IMG/VR virus record: IMGVR_UViG_2609459792_000013
Origin: a virus
Taxonomy: Duplodnaviria; Heunggongvirae; Uroviricota; Caudoviricetes
Length of the DNA: 36,682 nucleotides
Strand: one strand, 5' to 3'
Below the pieces are notes generated by a model that saw nothing but the letters and a program-made list of their open reading frames with translations, did no database searches and had not been told where the DNA came from. Positions 1 through 27,853 of the stretch are shown piece after piece. The position numbers and the translations under genes were made by a program. How positions within the stretch are numbered: position 1 is the first letter of the stretch; each line of letters starts with the position of its first letter.

Positions 1-1053
1 TTACGGGGTAATGCCAACCGCTGCCGCCACTTTGTCGCCACTTGGCAGCGTTGCCAGAGGATTGAAACGGAGCGCCGTTTCCAGATGATCCGGTGCCAGA
101 TGTGCGTAACGCATAGTCATTTTTATATCGTGGTGTCCGAGAATTTTTTGTAAGGCCAGAATGTTTCCACCCGACATCATGAAGTGCGCCGCAAACGTAT
201 GGCGCAGAACGTGTGTGAGTTGACCGCGAGGGAGCACGATAGACGTTTTTTCCATCACGGATAAAAATTGAAAATAGCAGTCTGTGAAGAAATTGAACCC
301 ATCAAGCGCCATGATCTCTTCGTAAAGCTCTTTACTGATAGGGATGCTTCTGTTTTTCTTCCCCTTCGTTCTTACAAAGGTAATTCGGTATTTGGTCACC
401 TGTGAACGAGTAAGATTTACGGCTTCTCGCCAGCGTGCGCCTGTGCTTAAGCATATCTTAACTACCAGTGCCAGAATTGGGTCCTGACGTTTGCAATCAG
501 CCAGTAATTCAACAATCTGCTCATGGGTAAGCCATGCCATCTCTTTTTCTGCGATGGTGAATTTTCGCATGTTCTCCAGTGGGTTCGGATACGACCATTC
601 GCCCAGGCGGGATAGTTCGCTAAAAACACTACTTAGATAGCTTTGCTCCAGGTTAATGGTGACCGGGCTTGCTCCTTTCTTCCATTTCTCGCTGAAGTAG
701 ATCTCACCTGTCAGGCGTTTATCTCGATAGTGGGCAAACATTTTAGAGGTTAGATCAGTTGCAAGGGGATTGCCCAGAGCGTCAACCATCAGCAGCAATT
801 TGTCATAGACATGCTGCCCAGCTGTCAGTGATTTACCATGTAGTTTGAACCATAGCTCAACCACGTCTTTCAGTGTTCGACGATCCACTGATTCTCCCAG
901 CCAGGGCTTTGCTTCGGTTTCTTCCATCGTATGGCGCTCAAAAGCCAGAGCTTCGCCTTTGGTGGCGAATTGTTTACGCACACGACGCCCACTACGTCCG
1001 GCGGGGTAACATTCGCAAAGCCATTTTCCTGTGGTGAGTTTTCGTACTGCCAT
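1..1053 (-). CDS. int: Tyrosine-type site-specific integrase (P2 Int-like)
   Basis: Track ORF 1..1131; start trimmed to ATG at 1053 (MAVRKLTTGKW..., GGAGGG RBS 8 nt upstream), which aligns with my recollection of the P2 Int N-terminus. C-terminal HxxR and RYAHLAP tyrosine motif. Confidence 0.9.
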   Translation of the reverse strand: MAVRKLTTGKWLCECYPAGRSGRRVRKQFATKGEALAFERHTMEETEAKPWLGESVDRRTLKDVVELWFKLHGKSLTAGQHVYDKLLLMVDALGNPLATDLTSKMFAHYRDKRLTGEIYFSEKWKKGASPVTINLEQSYLSSVFSELSRLGEWSYPNPLENMRKFTIAEKEMAWLTHEQIVELLADCKRQDPILALVVKICLSTGARWREAVNLTRSQVTKYRITFVRTKGKKNRSIPISKELYEEIMALDGFNFFTDCYFQFLSVMEKTSIVLPRGQLTHVLRHTFAAHFMMSGGNILALQKILGHHDIKMTMRYAHLAPDHLETALRFNPLATLPSGDKVAAAVGITP

Positions 1054-1239
1054 AAAAAATGCCCTCCAATAGAGAGCATTTTTACTGTATATATAAACAG
1101 TGTCAATGTATGAAATCCTGCGACCATACATCTCACTGAAGCCATAATGAAGTTGGCTATTTTTTGCTATGTGAGTATGTGACTTTTGCGGTTAGCCTGC
1201 GGCTCATTGTTATATTAGGCGCAGATATAAAAGCAAAAT

Positions 1240-3946: not shown

Positions 3947-4800
3947 GCACCATCCTGAAATGGGCGGGAAATAAAACTGCCATAATGTCCGAACTGAAAA
4001 AACATCTTCCTGCTGGCCCGCGACTGGTTGAACCTTTCGCGGGTTCCTGTGCTGTGATGATGGAGACGGATTATCCCAGCTATCTGGTTGCGGATATTAA
4101 TCCTGATTTAATCAACCTCTATAAAAAGGTTGCCGCTGATTGTGAATCGTTTATATCTCGCGCCAGAGTTTTATTTGAGATCGCAAACAGGGAGGTGGCT
4201 TATTACAACATAAGGCAGGAGTTTAATTACTCAACTGAAATTACTGATTTCATGAAAGCGGTATATTTCCTGTATCTCAATCGTCACGGTTACCGTGGTT
4301 TATGTCGCTATAACAAGAGCGGGCATTTCAACATTCCCTACGGTAATTATAAAAATCCGTATTTCCCTGAAAAAGAAATTCGCGCATTTGCAGAAAAGGC
4401 CCAGCGAGCAACGTTTATCTGCGCCAGCTTTGATGAAACGCTGGCGATGTTGAAGGCGGGGGATGTGGTGTATTGCGATCCGCCGTATGACGGTACGTTT
4501 TCCGGCTATCACACTGACGGCTTCACTGAAGATGACCAGTATCACCTGGCATCTGTTCTTGAACATCGGTCATCAGAAGGACATCCGGTCATTGTTTCTA
4601 ACAGTGACACATCCCTGATCCGTTCGCTGTATCGCAATTTTACTCACCACTACATCAAGGCAAAACGCAGCATCGGTGTGGCAGCTGGCGAGGGTAAATC
4701 AGCAACAGAAATCATTGCTGTTTCCGGGCCGCGCTGCTGGGTGGGATTTGATTATTCGCGTGGCGTGGATAGTTCTGCCGTGTACGGAGTACGTGCATGA
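3943..4800 (+). CDS. dam: DNA adenine methyltransferase (Dam-like, N6-adenine; probably GATC)
   Basis: ATG at 3943 ([11 protein letters not shown]). Motif [10 protein letters not shown] and motif IV DPPY; long collinear similarity to E. coli Dam as I recall it ([32 protein letters not shown]). Confidence 0.85.
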
Positions 4801-7211
4801 GTCATGCCGATATGAACAACTGCTGCGGCTTTAACGAAGCTGCCGCATCGTTCTCATGGAACAGCCCGAAAAAGGCCATTAACCCTTATCTGGACCCGGT
4901 GGAAGTTGCGCCGGTTTCTACGCTTTCAAACCTGATCACTCTGTATGCTGCCGATAACGAGCAGGAACAGCTGCGCCGTGAGGCGCTGAGTGATCAGGTC
5001 TGGGAGCGTTATTTCTTTAATGAATCCCGTGATCCTGTCCAGCGCGAAATGGAACAGGATAAGCTCATTAGTCGGGCAAAGCTGGCGCATGAGCAGCAGC
5101 GTTTTAATCCGGATATGGTCATTCTGGCGGACGTCAACGCCCAGCCTTCCCATATCAGCAAGCCGCTGATGCAACGTATTGAATACTTCAGCAGCCTGGG
5201 CAGGCCAAAGGCTTATTCCCGCTATTTACGTGAGACGATTAAGCCATGTTTGGAACGACTGGAGCATGTACGCGACAGTCAGCTATCTGCATCTTTTCGC
5301 TTTATGGCAAGCCATGAAGGGCTGGACGGCCTGCTGATCCTGCCTGAAATGAGTCAGGATCAGGTGAAACGCCTGTCCACCTTGGTAGCTGCGCATATGA
5401 GTATGTGCCTTGATGCCGCTTGTGGCGATTTGTATGCCACCGATGACGTTAAGCCAGAAGAAATCCGCAATACATGGGAAAGGGTGGCAGCGGAAACCCT
5501 GCGTCTGGATGTCATCCCGCCTGCGTTTGAGCAACTCCGTCGGAAAAGAAACCGCCGTAAACCCGTGCCCTATGAACTCATTCCGGGTTCGCTGGCGCGT
5601 ATGTTGTGCGCCGACTGGTGGTATCGGAAATTATGGAAGATGCGTTGCGAATGGCGGGAAGAGCAGTTGCGTGCAGTCTGCCTTGTCAGCAAAAAAGCAT
5701 CTCCTTATGTCAGCTATGAAGCCGTGATGCATAAACGTGAGCAGCGCCGTAAGTCGCTGGAGTTTTTCCGTTCTCATGAACTGGTGAACGAAGACGGCGA
5801 CACGCTGGACATGGAGGATGTGGTAAACGCCAGCAGCAGCAACCCAGCGCATCGCCGCAATGAGATGATGGCCTGTGTTAAAGGTCTGGAGCTTATCGCG
5901 GAAATGCGCGGTGACTGCGCCGTTTTCTACACCATCACCTGTCCGTCACGTTTCCATTCCACGCTAAACAACGGCAGGCCCAACCCAACCTGGACAAATG
6001 CGACGGTAAGACAAAGCAGTGATTATCTGGTCGGCATGTTTGCTGCATTTCGTAAGGCGATGCACAAAGCCGGATTGCGGTGGTATGGCGTGCGGGTGGC
6101 TGAGCCGCATCATGACGGTACAGTTCACTGGCACCTGTTGTGTTTTATGCGCAAAAAAGACCGCCGCACCATCACTGCATTACTGCGTAAGTTTGCCATC
6201 CGTGAAGACCGCGAGGAGCTGGGCAATAACACTGGGCCGCGCTTTAAGTCTGAGTTGATTAACCCGCGCAAAGGTACGCCAACAAGCTACATCGCGAAAT
6301 ACATCAGTAAGAACATTGACGGGCGTGGTCTGGCTGGCGAGATCAGCAAGGAAACGGGGAAATCCCTGCGTGATAATGCTGAATACGTTAATGCCTGGGC
6401 GTCTCTGCATCGTGTTCAGCAATTCCGCTTCTTTGGCATTCCGGGGCGTCAGGCTTACCGTGAACTGCGATTGCTGGCTGGTCAGGCGGCAAGGCAACAG
6501 GGGGACAAAAAAGCAGGTGCGCCGGTACTGGATAACCCGCGCCTTGATGCCATTCTGGCTGCTGCTGATGCTGGTTGTTTTGCCACCTACATCATGAAGC
6601 AGGGTGGCGTACTGGTTCCCCGCAAATATCACCTCATCAGAACTGCTTATGAAATCAACGAAGAGCCGACCGCCTATGGCGATCACGGCATTCGTATTTA
6701 TGGCATCTGGTCACCTATTGCAGAGGGCAAGATCTGCACTCATGCCGTGAAGTGGAAAATGGTTCGTAAGGCCGTTGACGTTCAGGAGGCGGCAGCCGAC
6801 CAGGGCGCTTGCGCCCCTTGGACTCGTGGCAATAACTGTCCCCTTGCTGAAAATTTGTACCAACAAGGGAAAGACAAATCAGCTGATGGAGATACCAGAA
6901 CGGATATCACCCGCATGGATGACAAGGAGTTGCACGATTACCTGCACAGTATGAGCAAAAAAGAGCGCCGGGAACTGGCAGCAAGGTTACGCCTGGTGAA
7001 ACCGAAACGGCGTAAAGACTACAAACAACGAATTACAGACCATCAGCGACTGCAGCTCGTGTATGAACTGAAGTCCAGGGGATTTGATGGCAGCGAGAAA
7101 GAGGTCGATTTACTGCTTCGCGGCGGCAGTATTCCGTCAGGAGCAGGCCTGCGTATCTTCTATCGGAACCAGCGTTTGCAGGAAGATGATAAGTGGCGAA
7201 ACCTGTATTAA
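4797..7211 (+). CDS. A: Rolling-circle replication initiator (P2 gpA-like)
   Basis: 804 aa; HUH-type motif [10 protein letters not shown] and Y-x3-Y active-site pair (YIAKY), as in P2 A. Start overlaps the Dam stop. Confidence 0.85.
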
Positions 7212-18656: not shown

Positions 18657-20408
18657 CTATTGGTTGAATATGAAGCTGATAATATTTTCAGGAGTGAGCT
18701 CTATGTTTTTTTTATTAAGTTTTTGAATGTACATTTTATATTTCATTTCAACGTTTCGGAAGCCTTGCGCAACAGAAAGTATTTCTACAGGATGAGATGA
18801 AAGTTTTATTAAGGAGTTAATGACTGTATCTAGGTAGATGTGAGCATGTTCAACTAAAACATTTGTTTTTGATGGGGTTTTTCCAGTGTGAACTATCAAG
18901 TTTCTAGTTCTATATATTCTCCTAATTTGCCAGTTGATTCTTTCTGCATGATTTTTAAGTGCCTGATACATAGTATCAGTTGAGGAAATTAAATTGCTAA
19001 TATATTCAAATCTCTCTTTCAATAACGGAAATTGTGATAGTTCTATCTTAAACTGATTGATGCTAGGGGCATGTTCTTGCGAAGCAACAAGAATTACAAA
19101 TGATTTGGCTGCATCGCTATCTCCAATTAGTCTTAGAAGTGACATGGTTCGAGGATGATTCCATCGTTGTAAGTCTTTTATAAGATTCCTTACTAGGTCT
19201 TCAATATAATTCAGGTTTAAAAATGGTGTTAATGAATTAACGATATGTTCTATCGTGGATTGTTCTTCTTTTTTTGATTCGTCGGGGATGAGTGATTCAA
19301 TAGCAATCCATAAATTTAAAAGCTGATTTTCTACAGCATTTGTCTGTAGTGCCATTGAATGTAATTGTACACTTCTTATGAATTTATTGAAAGAATCCTT
19401 GCGCATTCTGAAATTATTCATGAATTGTTCGAGTCTTCTGCTTGCGTGTTCCTGAACCAGATCCTTGCAGCGGTGCATTGGGTTTATGCTGCTTCTTATA
19501 TTGATTTTTTCACCATTTTCACTAACTACAATGTTCTCTGCAGACCATGATGCTTCTTGCTTATGATGATAGAGAGAAAGCAAAGTTGATGCGAGCTTTA
19601 AGTTTCTTTCAGCTACCCTTCTAGCCGTGAATGGATCAAGTGCTTTAACATGCTTAACTAAAATAGTTCGTTGTTCATGATTATCGAAGAAATCTGTTTC
19701 ATTAATATTTTCGGGGGTTTCAAGAACAACCTCAATTTCTAATTGTGATAAGCATGGAGTAATATAACTAAAAGATTTGTCAGCATTGAAATAAACTGAA
19801 TATTCTTGTGTCTCTGAGGGGATGTTCTCTAGGAATGTAATAATCTCTTCATTTGAACTGATCTCTCGTTCTCTTTGGAAGAAATGTTTTTTTAGACTTT
19901 CCATCAAATATTCTTGACTTAATCCTTTTGATATTAGATGGGTAATCAACAGTCTTGTAAACTTTCGAATTTTATTTGGGTTGTATTCTGAAGTTATTGT
20001 AGAGCAAAGTTCACTGATGAGTTTGCTTTCATAATTACCAACATTAAGTTGAACTCTCAGTAATTCAAGAGTTATTTTTAGATTTTTATTTCCTAACTGA
20101 TTGTTTTGGAGTTGATCTAAAAATGAACCTAAAGGGTTTTTTAGAAGACTGATTGCGATGTCATCATTCTTAATATTTTTAGTTAATTCGTCAATGACGT
20201 GGGATATATGTGCGGGGCTTATGTTGCCTTTTTCTATATCATCGATTGTTGATATTGCTTCTATACATAAACTTGGAGTGTTCATTATAGAAGGTTTATA
20301 TGTACTATGGGTGTAATCAAAGAGAAGTTCCTCCATTAACTCGGTGAAATAAATAAGCGCAGTGCATTGTTCAATATGATTCCAGTTGTGTAGTCTTCTA
20401 AATTTCAT
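18657..20408 (-). CDS. Cargo protein (583 aa) antisense to the late operon in the S-V moron slot; candidate HEPN-like abortive-infection protein
   Basis: Very AT-rich ORF; ATG at 20408 (MKFRRLHNWNH...). The track TTG start at 20528 would overlap gpV and is rejected. C-terminal motif IRRIYRTRNLIVHTGK matches R-N-x3-H-x-G; no Walker A motif. Confidence 0.8.
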   Translation of the reverse strand: MKFRRLHNWNHIEQCTALIYFTELMEELLFDYTHSTYKPSIMNTPSLCIEAISTIDDIEKGNISPAHISHVIDELTKNIKNDDIAISLLKNPLGSFLDQLQNNQLGNKNLKITLELLRVQLNVGNYESKLISELCSTITSEYNPNKIRKFTRLLITHLISKGLSQEYLMESLKKHFFQREREISSNEEIITFLENIPSETQEYSVYFNADKSFSYITPCLSQLEIEVVLETPENINETDFFDNHEQRTILVKHVKALDPFTARRVAERNLKLASTLLSLYHHKQEASWSAENIVVSENGEKINIRSSINPMHRCKDLVQEHASRRLEQFMNNFRMRKDSFNKFIRSVQLHSMALQTNAVENQLLNLWIAIESLIPDESKKEEQSTIEHIVNSLTPFLNLNYIEDLVRNLIKDLQRWNHPRTMSLLRLIGDSDAAKSFVILVASQEHAPSINQFKIELSQFPLLKERFEYISNLISSTDTMYQALKNHAERINWQIRRIYRTRNLIVHTGKTPSKTNVLVEHAHIYLDTVINSLIKLSSHPVEILSVAQGFRNVEMKYKMYIQKLNKKNIELTPENIISFIFNQ

Positions 20409-20452
20409 ATTAATACCTTGTTTTGTGAAGCTTGAATTTACCTTTAGCGCAT

Positions 20453-20470
20453 TGTTTGTTGCTTCATACA
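20453..20470. promoter_or_regulatory. TGT-N12-ACA dyad between the cargo gene and V (late-promoter activator site candidate)
   Basis: TGTTTGTTGCTTCATACA, with flanking extended symmetry TGTTTG...CAAACA. Centre is 55.5 bp from the V ATG (20517) and 53.5 bp from the cargo ATG (20408). Confidence 0.45.
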
Positions 20471-20516
20471 AACATGGTTTGTTTGTGATCTCAAGTGTTT
20501 GATTAAGAATTTGAGA

Positions 20517-21095
20517 ATGAACGTACAACTCACGGAAATCATGCGCCTTATCACCAATCTGATCCGCACAGGGGTAGTCACCGAAGTGGACCGGGAAAAC
20601 TGGCTTTGCAGGGTGAAAACGGGCGAGCTTGAAACCAACTGGATCAGCTGGCTGACGCTACGTGCCGGAAATGCCCGGACATGGTGGCGACCATCGGAAG
20701 GTGAGCAGGTGGTGCTGCTGAGTCTGGGCGGCAATCTGGAGACCGCCTTTGCGCTGCCCGCTGTCTATTCGAATCAGTTCGCACCACCGTCGACGTCGGC
20801 GGACGCCTGCGTGACAGAACATCCTGACGGTGGCTGGTTTGAATACGAACCCGCCACCGGGCGCTGGTATGTCAGGGGCATCAAATCAATGGTCATTGAG
20901 GCCGCTGACAACATCACCCTGAAAACCAGTGAGTTTGTACTGGAGGCTGACCGCACGCGCATTAACAGTGAAGTGGTGATCAATGGTGGAGTTACCCAGG
21001 GCGGCGGAGCGATGAGTTCTAACGGGATCGTGGTTGATGCGCATCAGCATACTGGCGTCCTGAAAGGCGGCGATACAACCGGAGGCCCGGTATGA
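20517..21095 (+). CDS. V: Baseplate spike protein (gpV-like)
   Basis: N-terminus MNVQLTEIMRLITNLIRTGVVTEVD resembles recalled P2 V; an alternative start at 20541 is possible. Confidence 0.8.
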   Translation: MNVQLTEIMRLITNLIRTGVVTEVDRENWLCRVKTGELETNWISWLTLRAGNARTWWRPSEGEQVVLLSLGGNLETAFALPAVYSNQFAPPSTSADACVTEHPDGGWFEYEPATGRWYVRGIKSMVIEAADNITLKTSEFVLEADRTRINSEVVINGGVTQGGGAMSSNGIVVDAHQHTGVLKGGDTTGGPV

Positions 21096-21451: not shown

Positions 21452-22346
21452 CCTTTCGCAGTTGCCTGCGCCGCAGATTGTCGATGTGCCGGACTTTGAG
21501 ACGTTGCTTGCCGAACGCAAGGCCGAATTTGTTGCGCTTCATCCGAAAGATGAGCAGGAAGCAGTGATCCGCACGCTTGAACTGGAATCTGAACCCGTCA
21601 CCAAATTGCTGCAGGAGAACGCTTACCGTGAGTTGCTTCTGCGCCAGCGCATTAACGAAGCCGCGCAGGCTGTGATGGTGGCTTACGCTATGGGCAGCGA
21701 TCTTGACCAGCTCGCTGCCAACTACAACGTGAAACGCCTGACGGTGACGCCTGCTGATAATGACGCTGTGCCGCCCGTTGCAGCTGTGATGGAAAGCGAT
21801 GAAGCGTTACGCCTGCGTGTGCCTGCAGCCTTTGAAGGGCTTTCAGTTGCGGGGCCAACTGCAGCTTATGAATTTCATGCCCGAAGCGCCGACGGTCGGG
21901 TGGCGGATGCCAGTGCAACCAGCCCGGCACCTGCAGAGGTGGTGCTGACTGTCCTTAGCCGCGAAGGCGATGGAACTGCAGAAAAAGATCTGCTGGACGT
22001 GGTGGAAAAAGCTCTGAACAGTGAGAACGTCCGCCCGGTGGCTGACCGTCTGACGGTTCGCAGCGCAGAAATCATCCCGTATCGCGTGGAAGCCACCATT
22101 TTTCTCTATCCGGGACCGGAAGCAGAGCCGGTAATGGCAGCGGCAAAAGCCAGCCTGCAGAAGTACATCGCCAGTCAGACGCGTCTTGGTCGGGATATTC
22201 GCCGTAGCGCCATCTTTGCCGCCCTGCATGTTGAGGGTGTGCAGCGTGTGGAGCTGGCTTCTCCTCTGGCGGATGTGGTCCTGAACAAAACACAGGCGGC
22301 ATCATGTACGCAGTGGAGCGTAACCAACGGAGGAACGGATGAATAG
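21438..22346 (+). CDS. J: Baseplate protein (gpJ-like)
   Basis: ATG at 21438 (MAVIDLSQLPAP...), about 302 aa; track ORF begins upstream at 21399. Confidence 0.8.
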   Translation: MAVIDLSQLPAPQIVDVPDFETLLAERKAEFVALHPKDEQEAVIRTLELESEPVTKLLQENAYRELLLRQRINEAAQAVMVAYAMGSDLDQLAANYNVKRLTVTPADNDAVPPVAAVMESDEALRLRVPAAFEGLSVAGPTAAYEFHARSADGRVADASATSPAPAEVVLTVLSREGDGTAEKDLLDVVEKALNSENVRPVADRLTVRSAEIIPYRVEATIFLYPGPEAEPVMAAAKASLQKYIASQTRLGRDIRRSAIFAALHVEGVQRVELASPLADVVLNKTQAASCTQWSVTNGGTDE

Positions 22347-22944
22347 TCTGCTGCCACCGGGTTCAACACCACTGGAGCGCCGACTGGCGCAAACCTGCAG
22401 CGGGATTTCTGATCTGCAGGTGCCGCTTCGTGACTTGTGGAATCCGGCAACCTGCCCGGTCAGTTTCCTGCCTTATCTCGCCTGGGCGTTCTCTGTGGAT
22501 CGCTGGGACGAGGGCTGGACAGAAAGCGTCAAGCGCCAGGTGGTGAAGGATGCTTTTTATATTCATCAGCATAAAGGGACCACCAGTGCCGTGCGTCGGG
22601 TGGTGGAGCCGTTCGGCTTTCTGATCCGCATTATTGAGTGGTGGCAGACCGGAGAGACACCGGGCACGTTTCGTCTGGATATCGGCGTGCAGGACCAGGG
22701 CATCACTGAAGATACCTATCTGGAACTTGAGCGACTGATAAGCGATGCCAAACCATGTAGCCGTCACATGATCGGCATGTCCATCAACCTGCAGACCAGC
22801 GGCCCGCATTGGGTGGGAGCCGCCAGCTATCTTGGCGAAGAAATCACGATCTATCCGTATATCAACGAAACAATTATTTCCGGCGGCACCGCGCATGAAG
22901 GCGGGGCGGTCCATGTTATTGACACAATGAGAGTGAATCCATGA
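22339..22944 (+). CDS. I: Baseplate protein (gpI-like)
   Basis: 201 aa; overlaps the J stop and the H start. Confidence 0.8.
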   Translation: MNSLLPPGSTPLERRLAQTCSGISDLQVPLRDLWNPATCPVSFLPYLAWAFSVDRWDEGWTESVKRQVVKDAFYIHQHKGTTSAVRRVVEPFGFLIRIIEWWQTGETPGTFRLDIGVQDQGITEDTYLELERLISDAKPCSRHMIGMSINLQTSGPHWVGAASYLGEEITIYPYINETIISGGTAHEGGAVHVIDTMRVNP

Positions 22945-24380
22945 GCACAAAATTTTATACCCTGCTGACGGATATTGGCGCGGCGAAACTTGCCAGCGCC
23001 GCCGCGCTCGGTGTGCCTTTAAAAATTACCCATATGGCGGTCGGCGATGGCGGCGGAACATTGCCAACGCCGGACGCAAAGCAGACAGCATTAGTAAATG
23101 AGAAACGCCGGGCTGCGCTGAATATGCTCTATATCGACCCGCAGAACAGCAGCCAGATTATTGCTGAACAGGTGATCCCTGAAAACGAGGGCGGTTGGTG
23201 GATACGTGAAGTGGGCCTGTTTGATGAGTCCGGGGCATTGATTGCCGTGGGCAACTGCCCGGAAAGCTATAAGCCGCAACTGGCTGAAGGCAGCGGGCGT
23301 ACCCAGACCGTGCGCATGGTGCTGATTACCAGCAGCACGGACAATATCACCCTGAAAATCGACCCTGCCGTAGTGCTGGCAACCCGCAAGTATGTGGATG
23401 ACAAGGTACTGGAGCTGAAGGTGTACGTAGATGACCTGATGGCAAAACATCTTGCTGCACAGGACCCACATTCACAGTACGCGCCAAAAGCCAGCCCGAC
23501 ATTTACCGGAACCCCCAAAGCGCCAACGCCAGCGGCGGGGAATAATACCACGCAGGTTGCGACCACTGCGTTTGTACAGGCGGCACTGACGGCCCTTATT
23601 AATGGTGCGCCAGCCACGCTGGACACGCTGAAAGAAATAGCCGCAGCCATTAACAATGATCCGAATTTCAGTACCACCATTAACAATGCGCTGGCACTAA
23701 AAGCACCGTTGTCGAGTCCGGCACTCACCGGAACGCCAACAGCCCCCACGGCGGCGCAGTCGGTCAACAATACACAGATTGCCACTACGGCTTTTGTGAA
23801 ATCGGCGATTGCAGGAATGGTGGGTTCTGCACCTGCTGCACTGGATACACTGAACGAACTGGCGGCGGCACTGGGGAATGATCCGAACTTTGCCACGACA
23901 ATGCTTAATGCGCTGGCAGGTAAACAACCGCTGGACAATACGCTTACCAATTTGAGTGGAAAGGATGTGGCTGGTCTTCTCGCATACCTTGGTTTGGGAG
24001 AAGCGGCAACGAGGAACGTCGGAACGGATACCGGGCAAGTACCAGATATGAGTAGTTTTACAACGGGGCACTCTGGAGCAGCAGACTGGCCGATTCCTAA
24101 ATCTGGATGGAGTAAGGGGCCGGAAGGGGTAATTACACAATGGGGTATTTTCGGTTTCCCCGTTGGACAGACAGGGACGAATGTTGTTTTCCCGCTACCT
24201 TTCCCCGCGCGGGTCGAATCAATTACACTGACAATGGCAGATATCCAGGAGTCTCTGCTTTCTCCAGCAACCATGCCTGCTTATGGAGTTAACTCAACTG
24301 GTACTTCAAGAACGGGTTTTACAGCCCGTATGTCAGGCGCCGGTGGGTTTAATCTTTGCTATATAGCGAAAGGGAGATAA
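22941..24380 (+). CDS. H: Tail fibre protein (gpH-like); C-terminal about 130 aa lie inside the invertible segment
   Basis: 479 aa with Ala/Thr-rich repeats (TAFVQAALTAL, TAFVKSAIAGM) typical of tail fibres. The hix-like crossover site falls at codons 350-354 (LGLGE). Confidence 0.8.
   Translation: MSTKFYTLLTDIGAAKLASAAALGVPLKITHMAVGDGGGTLPTPDAKQTALVNEKRRAALNMLYIDPQNSSQIIAEQVIPENEGGWWIREVGLFDESGALIAVGNCPESYKPQLAEGSGRTQTVRMVLITSSTDNITLKIDPAVVLATRKYVDDKVLELKVYVDDLMAKHLAAQDPHSQYAPKASPTFTGTPKAPTPAAGNNTTQVATTAFVQAALTALINGAPATLDTLKEIAAAINNDPNFSTTINNALALKAPLSSPALTGTPTAPTAAQSVNNTQIATTAFVKSAIAGMVGSAPAALDTLNELAAALGNDPNFATTMLNALAGKQPLDNTLTNLSGKDVAGLLAYLGLGEAATRNVGTDTGQVPDMSSFTTGHSGAADWPIPKSGWSKGPEGVITQWGIFGFPVGQTGTNVVFPLPFPARVESITLTMADIQESLLSPATMPAYGVNSTGTSRTGFTARMSGAGGFNLCYIAKGR
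23977..24002. other. Left recombination site of the invertible segment (hix/gix-like, inside H)
   Basis: TTCTCGCATACC TT GGTTTGGGAGAA. Its reverse complement shares 14 consecutive nt (TTCTCCCAAACCAA) with the right site; 15-bp identical core is 23989-24003. Confidence 0.6.
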
Positions 24381-24384
24381 CAGA

Positions 24385-24828
24385 ATGAATAAAGTTAAAA
24401 GTGTTTACAGCCCGTCCGAAAATGCAATCTACAACGCAGCGCTATATGAAAGTTATATCAAGGAGGGGACATGGCCGCAGGATGGTATTGAAATCAGCGA
24501 TGAGGATGCTGTCAGATTTAATGGGGGAAATAAGCCAACAGGAAAAATGCTGGGAATGGTTTCAGGGACCCTTGCATGGGTTGATGAGCCGCCGCTTTCA
24601 CCAGAACAGAAAATATCAGATGCAGAAAACATGAAAGCCACATTTCGTGCAAAAGCTGACAGTGAAATATCCTGGCGTCAGGATGCTGTTGATGCTGGTA
24701 TCGCAACTGATGAAGAAACTTCAACTCTCACCCAATGGAAGAAATACCGTGTGCTGCTGATGCGTGTTGATACATCAACAGCCCCCGATATTGAATGGCC
24801 TACACCTCCGGCAGTTCAGGCCAGATGA
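24385..24828 (+). CDS. G: Tail fibre assembly chaperone (gpG/Tfa-like)
   Basis: 147 aa directly after H; C-terminal DTSTAPDIEWP motif is shared with the minus-strand Tfa'. Confidence 0.75.
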   Translation: MNKVKSVYSPSENAIYNAALYESYIKEGTWPQDGIEISDEDAVRFNGGNKPTGKMLGMVSGTLAWVDEPPLSPEQKISDAENMKATFRAKADSEISWRQDAVDAGIATDEETSTLTQWKKYRVLLMRVDTSTAPDIEWPTPPAVQAR

Positions 24829-25402
24829 CATCCGGCGCGGTGCTGGTATCTGTTGCCGTCACCGCGTCAATGTAATCCAGCACGGCGTTAAGGCGGGTGG
24901 TTTCTGCCTGCGTCAGCCTCCGCCCGGCCTGTAATTTCAGCTGAATCAGACTGATGGAAGCCATTGCAGCATCAATCAGTGACTGGCGCTGTGCTTCTGC
25001 CGCGTCTACTGCGGCGCAATGCTGTGCCTCAGTATCGGTCACCCATTTCTCACCATCCCATTTATCGTATGGCGTTAACGGGGCGATAGTGGTTGTATTT
25101 TCGGGGTAATCACCCGGAGCTGTGATTTCTTTGGCGTCTCCCGTTTCGGTGTTATAGACGATTTCACCGCGATGGTCTGGCACATATTCCCATGAATTTA
25201 AATCCACAGAGCGACAAATTGCATAACCAGCCTTGTATATGCCAGGTGCCTCCAGACAGGAAAATGCCGGAATACCGACACCCACAGCAAGATATTCAGT
25301 TGATGTGGAAATATATTCCCGTATTTCGCCATCATAGTTATAGACGGTAATATTCCCCGCCTTTGTAGCAATAAACTCGCTATTTAATACAGCGTTATCC
25401 AT
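24800..25402 (-). CDS. Alternative tail fibre assembly chaperone (Tfa'), for the inverted orientation
   Basis: 200 aa; C-terminus DTSTAPDVIWPELP; its 3' end overlaps the plus-strand tfa 3' end by 29 bp (convergent). Confidence 0.75.
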   Translation of the reverse strand: MDNAVLNSEFIATKAGNITVYNYDGEIREYISTSTEYLAVGVGIPAFSCLEAPGIYKAGYAICRSVDLNSWEYVPDHRGEIVYNTETGDAKEITAPGDYPENTTTIAPLTPYDKWDGEKWVTDTEAQHCAAVDAAEAQRQSLIDAAMASISLIQLKLQAGRRLTQAETTRLNAVLDYIDAVTATDTSTAPDVIWPELPEV

Positions 25403-25893
25403 TATGCAGCCCTCACGATATAGTTAAATGCAATATTCCGTGGACGGGTTTCATTTATCCCATATGCTGTTGTTCTCTGATTCCCGACAAAATATCCATT
25501 TGGATTAGAAGATACAGAATAATCATCAAAATCAAGTGGGCTATCAGCACCCGGCGTCAGGCTTGCAATATATCCTCTTCCCATAACTTCTGATGCTGGT
25601 ATTTCTTTTGTACGATAATCACTAACTCTGAAGAGCTGCCCTTGGTGGGTGTGTGATTCCACTCCTCCATTCTGAAGACTTAGCAAGGCACGTACAGCAT
25701 CAATACCACGCCCGTCATCCCAGCCACGAATAAATTCACCGCGTAAATCAGGCAATTTATTTGTCGGGTAAGCCTTTGCCAGTTCCGGGTATTCTTCAGC
25801 AGAAAAAGCTGCACCGTTGCATTTCAGCCAGCCTGTTGGCGGTGTGGCTGAAGGCCATGGAACAGGCACACCAACAGGTAATGCAGAGCCTTC
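25402..25893 (-). CDS. Alternative tail fibre C-terminal (receptor-binding) module H', start-less; expressed only after inversion fuses it to the constant gpH N-terminus
   Basis: Open frame runs from the right hix-like site (codons GLGE in the same phase and with the same nucleotides as gpH 351-354) to the stop at 25402. The track ORF's first 17 codons lie at or beyond the crossover and are not a real start. Confidence 0.6.
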   Translation of the reverse strand, partial: EGSALPVGVPVPWPSATPPTGWLKCNGAAFSAEEYPELAKAYPTNKLPDLRGEFIRGWDDGRGIDAVRALLSLQNGGVESHTHQGQLFRVSDYRTKEIPASEVMGRGYIASLTPGADSPLDFDDYSVSSNPNGYFVGNQRTTAYGINETRPRNIAFNYIVRAA

Positions 25894-25916
25894 TCCCAAA
25901 CCAACGTTTATGAAAA
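25891..25916. other. Right recombination site of the invertible segment (hix/gix-like)
   Basis: TTCTCCCAAACC AA CGTTTATGAAAA resembles the hix/gix consensus TTATCAAAAACC AA GGTTTTTGATAA; about 55 bp upstream of the invertase start. Confidence 0.6.
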
Positions 25917-25971
25917 TGCAGAGATAATGACTAACTGGCATCATCTCCGGTTTTTATTCAGGGGGATGCTC

Positions 25972-26538
25972 ATGCTTATTGGCTATGTACGCGTGTCAAC
26001 AAATGACCAGAACACCGATTTGCAACGTAATGCACTGAACTGCGCGGGATGTGACCGGATTTTTGAGGACAAAATCAGTGGCACTAAGTCCGACAGACCG
26101 GGGCTTAAAAAACTGCTCAGGACACTATCGGCAGGAGACACGCTGGTTGTCTGGAAGCTGGACAGACTGGGTCGCAGTATGCGGCATCTTGTTACGCTGA
26201 TAGAAGAGTTGCGCCAGCGTGGTGTGAATTTCCGAAGCCTGACTGACAGTATTGATACCAGTACCCCAATGGGCCGTTTCTTTTTTCATGTCATGGGGGC
26301 TCTGGCTGAAATGGAACGCGAACTGATAGTTGAACGAACCAGGGCAGGGCTGGCTGCAGCTCGTGCCAAAGGCAGAGTAGGTGGACGCCGTCCTAAGTTG
26401 ACCACCGAACAGTGGGCACAGATTGGGCGTTTACTCGAGGCCGGAGAATCAAGACAGCGTATTGCACTGATTTTTGATGTGGGCGTTTCTACCATTTATA
26501 GAAAATTTCCGGCAAATAAGAGCAGTGAATCCCCCTGA
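25972..26538 (+). CDS. Serine site-specific DNA invertase (Gin/Hin/Pin/Cin family)
   Basis: ATG at 25972 gives MLIGYVRVSTNDQNTDLQRNAL..., near-collinear with Mu Gin as I recall it, including the catalytic Ser in YVRVS and a C-terminal HTH. Track ORF begins upstream at 25927. Confidence 0.9.
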   Translation: MLIGYVRVSTNDQNTDLQRNALNCAGCDRIFEDKISGTKSDRPGLKKLLRTLSAGDTLVVWKLDRLGRSMRHLVTLIEELRQRGVNFRSLTDSIDTSTPMGRFFFHVMGALAEMERELIVERTRAGLAAARAKGRVGGRRPKLTTEQWAQIGRLLEAGESRQRIALIFDVGVSTIYRKFPANKSSESP

Positions 26539-26585
26539 ATCAGCATAATTTTGATTATCCCTGCAAGTAGACAAATACCGTCATT

Positions 26586-26603
26586 TTGTGTGAATAACTG
26601 TAC
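26586..26603 (+). promoter_or_regulatory. Late-promoter activator dyad TGT-N12-ACA upstream of FI
   Basis: TGTGTGAATAACTGTACA; centre is 86.5 bp upstream of the FI ATG, the same geometry as the O site. Confidence 0.55.
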
Positions 26604-26680
26604 AACTACACTTAGCTGTTTGTCGGGCACAATCACTTCAACATAGGGCGAAGCCTAATCCAATCAGGAGGTTCGCCGCT

Positions 26681-27853
26681 ATGGCTCAGGATTACCACCA
26701 CGGGGTGCGCGTTGTTGAAATCAACGAAGGCACCCGATCCATTACCACGGTGAGCACCGCCATCGTGGGTATGGTCTGCACGGGCGATGATGCCGATGCA
26801 AAAATGTTTCCTCTTAATAAACCCGTGCTGATCACTGATGTGCTGACTGCCAGCGGTAAAGCGGGGGAGTCCGGTACGCTGGCCCGTTCGCTGGATGCCA
26901 TCGCTGACCAGGCAAAACCCGTGACCATTGTTGTGCGTGTGCCGCAGGGTGAAACGGAAGACGAAACCACGACCAATATCATCGGCGCAGTGACTGCTGA
27001 AGGTAAAAAAACAGGTATGAAAGCCCTGTTATCTGCCCAGTCACAGCTCGGCGTTAAACCGCGCATTCTCGGCGTGCCAGGCCACGACACCAAGGCGGTA
27101 GCTACTGAGTTGCTGAGCGTGGCGCAAAGCCTGCGTGGATTTGCTTACCTGTCAGCGTATGGCTGCAAGACAGTGCAGGAGGCGATCACTTACCGCGAAA
27201 ACTTCAGCCAGCGCGAAGGGATGCTGATCTGGCCTGACTTTACTGGCTGGGACACGGTGCTGAATGCCGAAGCAACGGCATATGCCACCGCCCGTGCGCT
27301 TGGTCTGCGCGCCAAAATTGACGAGCAGACCGGATGGCACAAAAGCCTGTCCAACGTGGGCGTGAACGGTGTCACCGGAATTTCTGCAGATGTGTTCTGG
27401 GATCTGCAGGACCCGGCAACCGATGCAGGTCTGCTGAACCAGAACGACGTCACCACGCTTGTGCGTAAAGACGGTTTCCGCTTCTGGGGTTCCCGCTGCC
27501 TGAGTGATGACCCGCTCTTTGCCTTCGAAAACTACACCCGCACGGCGCAGGTGCTGATGGACACGATGGCAGAAGCACACATGTGGGCGGTGGATAAACC
27601 GCTTAACCCGTCGCTGGCCCGCGACATTATCGAAGGTATCCGCGCCAAAATGCGCAGCCTGGTCAGTCAGGGCTATCTCATTGGTGGTGATTGCTGGCTG
27701 GATGAGTCGGTGAACGACAAAGACACGCTGAAAGCCGGAAAACTCACCATCGACTACGACTACACGCCAGTGCCGCCACTTGAAAACCTGATGCTGCGTC
27801 AGCGCATCACCGATCAGTACCTGGTGAATTTCGCCAGCCAGGTCAGCGCGTAA
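26681..27853 (+). CDS. FI: Tail sheath protein (gpFI-like)
   Basis: 390 aa; AGGAGG RBS; followed by tube, E/E' and tape measure as in P2. Confidence 0.9.

Follow-up and report, generated by a model that had tools for sequence, protein, structure and literature searches.

A Pin/Gin-type invertible tail fibre segment in an Escherichia coli P2-like prophage

Organization of the tail fibre locus

IMG/VR virus record IMGVR_UViG_2609459792_000013 (36,682 nucleotides, referred to throughout as the window) carries an apparently complete P2-like prophage of Escherichia coli, with an integrase, gpA, and a set of capsid and tail genes. Its tail fibre gene H runs into a 1,916-bp segment that is bounded by two inverted 26-bp sites and adjoined by a gene coding for a serine DNA invertase, and it is very likely that this Pin/Gin-family enzyme flips the segment and so swaps the receptor-binding tip of H together with the chaperone that serves it. 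The features of the locus, in window coordinates, are as follows.

22941-24380, plus strand: H as now assembled, an open reading frame (ORF) of 479 amino acids (aa), with P2-type baseplate genes V, W, J, and I upstream
22941-23988: constant part of H, codons 1-349 and the start of codon 350
23977-24002: left crossover site (pixL-like), 26 bp, inside H, TTCTCGCATACC-TT-GGTTTGGGAGAA, central dinucleotide TT at 23989-23990
23989-24380, plus strand: variable C-terminus of H, 129 aa, with the Gp53-like_C domain
23989-25904: invertible segment, 1,916 bp, dinucleotide to dinucleotide inclusive
24385-24828, plus strand: Tfa, the assembly chaperone paired with the present H tip, 147 aa (PF02413 Caudo_TAP, E 9.8e-33)
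24800-25402, minus strand: Tfa', a TfaE-like chaperone of 200 aa that belongs to the alternative cassette (PF02413, E 2.2e-32)
25402-25904, minus strand: H', the alternative fibre C-terminus, 166 aa past the crossover (PF07484 Collar, E 5.2e-16)
25891-25916: right crossover site (pixR), 26 bp, TTCTCCCAAACC-AA-CGTTTATGAAAA, central dinucleotide AA at 25903-25904
25917-25971: spacer of 55 nucleotides (nt) from the right site to the invertase start, with the invertase ribosome-binding site AGGGGGA
25972-26538, plus strand: serine DNA invertase of the Pin/Gin/Cin/Hin family, 188 aa, catalytic Ser9 (PF00239 and PF02796)
25990-26061: probable recombinational enhancer (putative Fis-binding region), nt 19-90 of the invertase coding sequence

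H as presently assembled begins with a PF12571 Phage_tail_fib domain (residues 1-150; E 2.8e-65) and ends with a PF21882 Gp53-like_C domain (residues 394-478). The crossover falls in codon 350, past which the present form has 129 variable residues and the alternative form has 166. The constant N-terminus lies outside the segment, the two opposed C-termini lie inside it in one codon phase, and each alternative C-terminus is followed directly by its own Caudo_TAP chaperone gene, which is the organization of a tail fibre switch. An earlier note, made from the sequence alone, had proposed that the present orientation gives the H/Tfa pair and that inversion would exchange about 130 aa of gpH plus Tfa for H' and Tfa' without breaking the reading frame. 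The ORFs agree with this in each respect, with H ending in the Gp53-like tip 129 residues past the crossover, and in silico inversion (reverse complementation of 23989-25904) leaves H open without an interrupting stop as a 516-aa gene (...LAYLGLGEGSALPVG...RAA*), the stop codon of which overlaps the ATG of Tfa'.

The two tips differ in fold according to Pfam (Gp53-like_C and Collar, respectively), which is consistent with their recognizing different receptors. They also differ in their relatives, as H' is 67% identical to StfE of the e14 element and Tfa' is 88% identical to e14 TfaE (tfaE is also the name given to Tfa' relatives by the Prokaryotic Genome Annotation Pipeline [PGAP]), while the present tip has 27% identity to StfP and Tfa has 42% identity to TfaP. 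One cassette is thus e14-like and the other is unrelated to StfP/TfaP, such that the cassette pair is a mosaic. The G+C content of the segment is 0.45-0.51, compared with 0.55-0.58 for constant H, and together with the differing cassette relatives this indicates modular swapping of fibre tips.

The tfa and tfa' genes converge, and their 3' ends overlap by 29 bp (24800-24828), an overlap of the same length as that shared by tfaP and tfaE in e14. Both strands of the overlap encode a W-P that is conserved near the C-terminus of the chaperones (TGGCCT ... AGGCCA), and the overlap may be a junction for cassette exchange between phages.

Crossover sites

The longest inverted repeat in positions 22000-27500 has arms at 23977-24003 and 25890-25916 that are 27 nt long, 81% complementary, and 1,886 nt apart, and it spans the pair of inverted, hix/gix-like 26-bp sites (23977-24002 and 25891-25916) that the earlier note had proposed. 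Reverse-complemented, the right site reads TTTTCATAAACG-TT-GGTTTGGGAGAA and matches the left site at 21 of 26 positions, and the alignment contains the 15-bp identical core (TTGGTTTGGGAGAAG) that had been described. Each site has one mismatch to a degenerate hix/gix/cix consensus (TTNTCNNAAACCNNGGTTTNNGANAA). Both have imperfect 12-bp half-sites around the same 2-bp core, as do the sites of this invertase family generally, with dyad symmetry at 10 of 12 half-site positions on the left and 8 of 12 on the right, where the outer half is more diverged. The encoding of G-L-G-E by both strands in the same codon phase is likewise correct, with H reading ...LAYLGLGEAATR and H' reading ...NVGLGEGSALPV.

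In the whole 36.7-kb window, exact copies of the 14-mer core are confined to these two positions, and a palindromized 26-mer found no matches in 100 shuffles. A lone 15-bp inverted repeat within 36 kb would not by itself be remarkable; chance is excluded because of the 26-bp dyad layout, the position of the sites in two same-phase fibre frames, and the presence of an invertase 55 nt away. Further crossover sites, as would be needed for multiple inversion of the Min or shufflon type, are ruled out, there being only two sites in the window.

The sites are closely matched in other elements. The right site is identical at all 26 positions to the e14 right site (locus L005, 4606-4631) and to those of loci L009, L010, and L012, and the left site and its e14 counterpart (L005, 2779) agree at 23 of 26 positions. 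The core equals the e14 inverted repeats 5'-TTGGTTTGGGAGAAGG-3', at which inversion by PinE and PinQ has been measured and verified by quantitative PCR and sequencing (PMC12529663). The crossover annotated in P1 likewise falls at site positions 13/14. Across the Enterobacterales the right site lies at a fixed spacing from the invertase start, of about 54 or 65 bp, and encodes N/K-V/L-G-L-G-x.

The invertase and its probable enhancer

The Gin-like invertase that the earlier note placed immediately right of the sites is a full-length homologue of this family and begins 55 nt from the right site. It contains a PF00239 Resolvase domain (residues 3-135; E 3.3e-53) and a PF02796 HTH_7 domain (residues 138-181), carries Ser9 in the motif MLIGYVRVSTNDQ, aligns to residues 1-184 of Mu Gin, and matches the Gin structures 3uj3 (E 2.6e-92) and 4m6f (E 6.5e-91). 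It shares 86% identity with PinE, 79% with P1 Cin, and 75% with Mu Gin; the invertases of Klebsiella P2-like phages are 98% identical to it, and the best identity among GTDB representative genomes is 89%. NCBIfam provided no specific invertase equivalog, with every match falling under its cut-off.

In the P1 record the Cin enhancer is placed at nt 19-90 of cin, and the same position in the window gene (25990-26061) has 86% nucleotide identity to pinE and 76% to cin. When the window gene, pinE, cin, and gin are compared in pairs, each of the six comparisons shows greater synonymous-codon identity in the candidate enhancer region than across codons 31-130. The region contains two 15-mers of the form G-N13-C (nt 22-36 and 71-85), the centres of which are 49 bp apart, with TAATG and ATTT-type A/T tracts between them; such tracts have been noted for hin (PMC3798978). 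In Hin, the residues Q151, R154, and L155 and the basic residues at 47, 48, and 51 are unique to Fis/enhancer-dependent invertases (McLean et al.; PMC3798978), and the window invertase has Q150, R153, and L154 as well as K46, K47, and R50 (offset by -1 in an alignment via 1hcr). Judging from these residues and the candidate enhancer, inversion likely depends on Fis.

A perfect 12-bp inverted repeat (25956-25967 and 26529-26540; ATTCAGGGGGAT and ATCCCCCTGAAT) flanks the invertase gene and covers its ribosome-binding site and stop codon, such that its arms, if paired in the mRNA, could occlude ribosome binding. It was rejected as a conserved element, as two close relatives have only an imperfect version and e14 lacks it; with about one such repeat expected by chance per 5.5 kb, it is probably fortuitous.

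Both orientations in public assemblies and sibling strains

An exact-protein look-up of Tfa' identified 18 contigs encoding the identical protein. One of these, L087 (GCA_001285065.1), matches the in silico-inverted window at 100.000% over 10,603 bp with no mismatches and no gaps, and another, L088 (GCA_013092675.1), matches the native form at 100% over 6,398 bp; the exact element therefore exists both ways around and with the predicted junctions. Contig L089 is also in the inverted state, and in both L087 and L089 the fused H of 516 aa has been called as a gene. When complete E. coli genomes were queried with a 3.6-kb sequence, query coverage of at least 80% was reached by the native arrangement in 7 genomes and by the inverted arrangement in 11.

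Two near-isogenic pairs of strains, SW071619 and SW071611, and ZH48 and ZH49, have loci of ~9.5 kb that are identical save for one exact inversion. The members of each pair have a common source, nearly equal chromosome lengths, and the prophage at the same position. The crossover zone is 15 bp (TTGGTTTGGGAGAAG) in SW071619/SW071611 and 7 bp (TTGGTTT) in ZH48/ZH49, and both include the central TT, with the breakpoints mapping to the left crossover site; identity over only 7 bp argues for site-specific rather than homologous recombination. Inversion at the sites is thus precise and conservative in both the contigs and the sibling strains, and the expectation of the earlier note that both orientations, and not just one, should be detectable is borne out.

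The assemblies are also informative in the way that they are broken. Thirteen of the 18 contigs with an identical Tfa' are shorter than 2 kb, and two contigs from Logan, L091 and L092, correspond exactly to 23989-25904, with L092 present in seven samples. A short inverted repeat alone should not split an assembly graph, and a split at the outer edge of the core would be expected when reads support both junctions, such that single samples appear to hold both orientations. Of 79 related loci in species-representative genomes, 23 are cut off by the end of a contig no more than 300 bp upstream of the invertase, for the most part at the right site or inside it.

Assemblies often contain the segment as a separate orphan contig of ~1.9 kb (L090-L096; the breaks are in GTDB loci L008-L086). 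Such orphan contigs, together with breaks at the right site, are a usable signature for active invertible segments in draft assemblies.

A start codon outside the segment

A pair of in-frame ATG codons on the minus strand (25944 and 25941) lies outside the segment, in the 55-nt spacer, and opens a 180-aa ORF (25402-25944) that passes through the right site into H'. The earlier note had stated that H' has no start of its own, which is correct for the segment itself, as there is none inside it, and incorrect for its immediate surroundings, as this pair lies just outside and is conserved with e14 stfE; the leader MMPVSHYLCIFINVGLGE is similar to the stfE leader MMPFACYFFIFINVGLGE. Formally, the ATG pair is a start for whichever cassette adjoins the invertase. 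PGAP calls leader-started ORFs in relatives, and inversion of the e14 P segment is reported to yield StfE2, which is treated as an expressed, functional protein that blocks adsorption of T2 (PMC12529663, 2025). An outside leader ATG was considered as a feature of the whole family and discarded, as it is present in 16 of 46 loci, all in an e14-like subgroup; in the wider family a stop codon lies directly past the site.

Model and alternative explanations

In the model that we favour, H consists of a constant N-terminus (codons 1-350) to which either of two alternative receptor-binding tips can be joined, each with its own Tfa, and the two cassettes are arranged head-to-head on the 1,916-bp segment between the inverted pix-type sites. 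The 188-aa invertase would bind both sites and cut at the central TT/AA, with strand exchange by subunit rotation flipping the segment, and it would probably assemble with host Fis on an enhancer in the first ~90 bp of its own gene. The present orientation is predicted to yield a fibre with the Gp53-like tip, assisted by the 147-aa Tfa, and the inverted orientation one with the Collar-domain, StfE-like tip, assisted by the 200-aa TfaE-like chaperone, so that a population of lysogens would release two kinds of virion differing in adsorption specificity.

Several observations weigh against this model, or against parts of it. Neither the invertase nor the minus-strand leader ORF has a candidate promoter in a simple sigma-70 scan. 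The candidate Fis sites are recognized by position and a weak motif only, and their spacing of 49 bp compares with 48 bp in Hin. The contig breaks at the site could come in part from paralogous prophage modules rather than from mixed orientations. Finally, that the two fibre forms would differ in host range is presumed by analogy with Mu and P1.

Orientation differences between inverted repeats need not involve an invertase, as such repeats can in principle recombine by a RecA-dependent route, and short-read assemblers mishandle such regions, in which there are many contig breaks. Recombination or misassembly of this kind is nonetheless an extremely improbable source of the inversions, as the identity at the sites is just 15 bp, and only 7 bp in ZH48/ZH49, and homologous recombination is not expected to be efficient over so short a length; the breakpoints always include the central dinucleotide of a 26-bp hix-type site, the products are base-exact in complete long-range assemblies, and an intact invertase is adjacent in every case. 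The module could instead be a fossil, retaining sites and cassettes with either the invertase or the sites of this copy inactive, and the imperfect dyads (10 of 12 on the left and 8 of 12 on the right) and the outcome of the promoter scan would fit with that. This too is very improbable, given that sequences without a single difference over 6-10 kb are present in both orientations and that the segment is a separate unitig within single samples, from which it follows that inversion is very recent or ongoing; moreover, the full-length invertase retains both the catalytic and the Fis-contact residues, and e14, which has the same right site, is active.

A different possibility concerns what the switch is for, namely that it also or mainly serves the lysogen, with an ATG-started free fibre tip blocking the receptors of superinfecting phages and inversion toggling this defence. 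The leader ATG is present, resembles that of e14 stfE, and is kept in the e14-like subgroup; PGAP calls leader ORFs in relatives, and the reported behaviour of StfE2 toward T2 provides a parallel. We regard this role as unlikely, as the prophage looks complete and virion host range switching would suffice; the ATG is in just 16 of 46 loci, with a stop right after the site elsewhere; a GGAG lies only 0-3 nt from the ATGs; the leader ORF has no promoter in the simple scan; and leader conservation may reflect the leader of the invertase itself. Inversion of the e14 segment by PinQ acting in trans has been reported (PMC12529663), and because the sites are the same as those of e14, resident PinE or PinQ could flip the window segment in trans; judging by these shared sites, the window invertase could similarly act on e14, and Pin invertases of other prophages on the window segment. 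Combining trans-acting PinE and PinQ with a free receptor blocker would make the locus a defence toggle shared across prophages in addition to a host range switch, which is a doubtful proposition.

Other features of the prophage

Elsewhere in the prophage, two further genes have the following coordinates.

1-1131, minus strand: integrase
4797-7211: gpA

The baseplate genes V, W, J, and I lead into H, and the genes for the sheath, tube, and tape measure follow past the invertase. Beyond these are gpD and ogr, and then the host genes ybjL-ybjM-grxA, the host sequence being 100% identical to that in many E. coli genomes.

A further ORF of 623 aa (18657-20528, minus strand) sits between the tail completion genes and baseplate gene V. 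It has a very low G+C content (0.32-0.35, compared with 0.55-0.58 for the adjacent genes), and it matches nothing in Pfam, and PADLOC gives a weak match to ApeA over residues 60-574 (E 2.9e-12). In relatives the same slot holds another gene, annotated as 'P-loop ATPase, Sll1717 family'. The ORF resembles anti-phage cargo carried at a variable hotspot of P2.

Relationship to known inversion systems

The locus is an ordinary switch of the textbook type, for which Pin of e14, the Mu G segment, the P1 C segment, and Hin are the classic examples, and inversion in P2-like prophages has already been demonstrated. It introduces no new principle and adds another well-supported case of host range bet-hedging by a temperate phage. 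Its practical consequences are for annotation, in that calls of 'phage tail protein', 'tail fiber protein', and 'hypothetical protein' near such invertases represent two states of one gene, and contig breaks or ~1.9-kb orphan contigs at this position mark an active switch and not poor data.

The Mu G and P1 C segments are host range switches and resemble the window locus in the placement of a constant fibre N-terminus beyond the segment, with two C-termini and their chaperones (S-U and S'-U') inside it, in 26-bp sites with a 2-bp crossover core, and in an enhancer within the invertase gene, which is annotated in P1 and probable in the window. Their phage backbones differ from that of the window, and the segments are larger, at about 3 kb and 4.2 kb, respectively. 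The central dinucleotide in Mu is TC/GA, unlike the TT/AA of the window, and in P1 the invertase is on the other side relative to the fibre gene. The Hin-controlled H segment of Salmonella shares the recombinase family, 26-bp sites with a central AA/TT, and the Fis-contact residues, but Hin moves a promoter to switch flagellin genes, whereas inversion in the window moves no promoter and swaps coding C-termini.

Nearer in backbone are the P2-like prophages of enteropathogenic E. coli (EPEC) E2348/69, in which Goldberg et al. (2014; PMC4272514) showed, by sequencing and PCR, invertible fibre loci with two or three repeats and the coexistence of variants. Compared by layout, these loci and the tailocin carotovoricin Er share with the window a P2-type backbone, an invertase, and inverted repeats in the fibre gene; one of the EPEC loci has three repeats and four variants, in contrast to the two sites in the window.

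The e14 P segment (stfP-tfaP / tfaE-stfE / pinE) has the same gene order, the same 29-bp tfa overlap, and the same 15-bp core, and has a reported size of 1,797 bp, compared with 1,916 bp in the window. However, e14 is the remnant of a defective lambdoid prophage, and its fibre gene is truncated, whereas the window has a full P2-type H in an apparently complete prophage, and the present cassette of the window (the Gp53-like tip and the 147-aa Tfa) is unrelated to StfP/TfaP. In this prophage, an e14-type Pin module resides on a complete P2-type backbone and carries a mosaic pair of tips.

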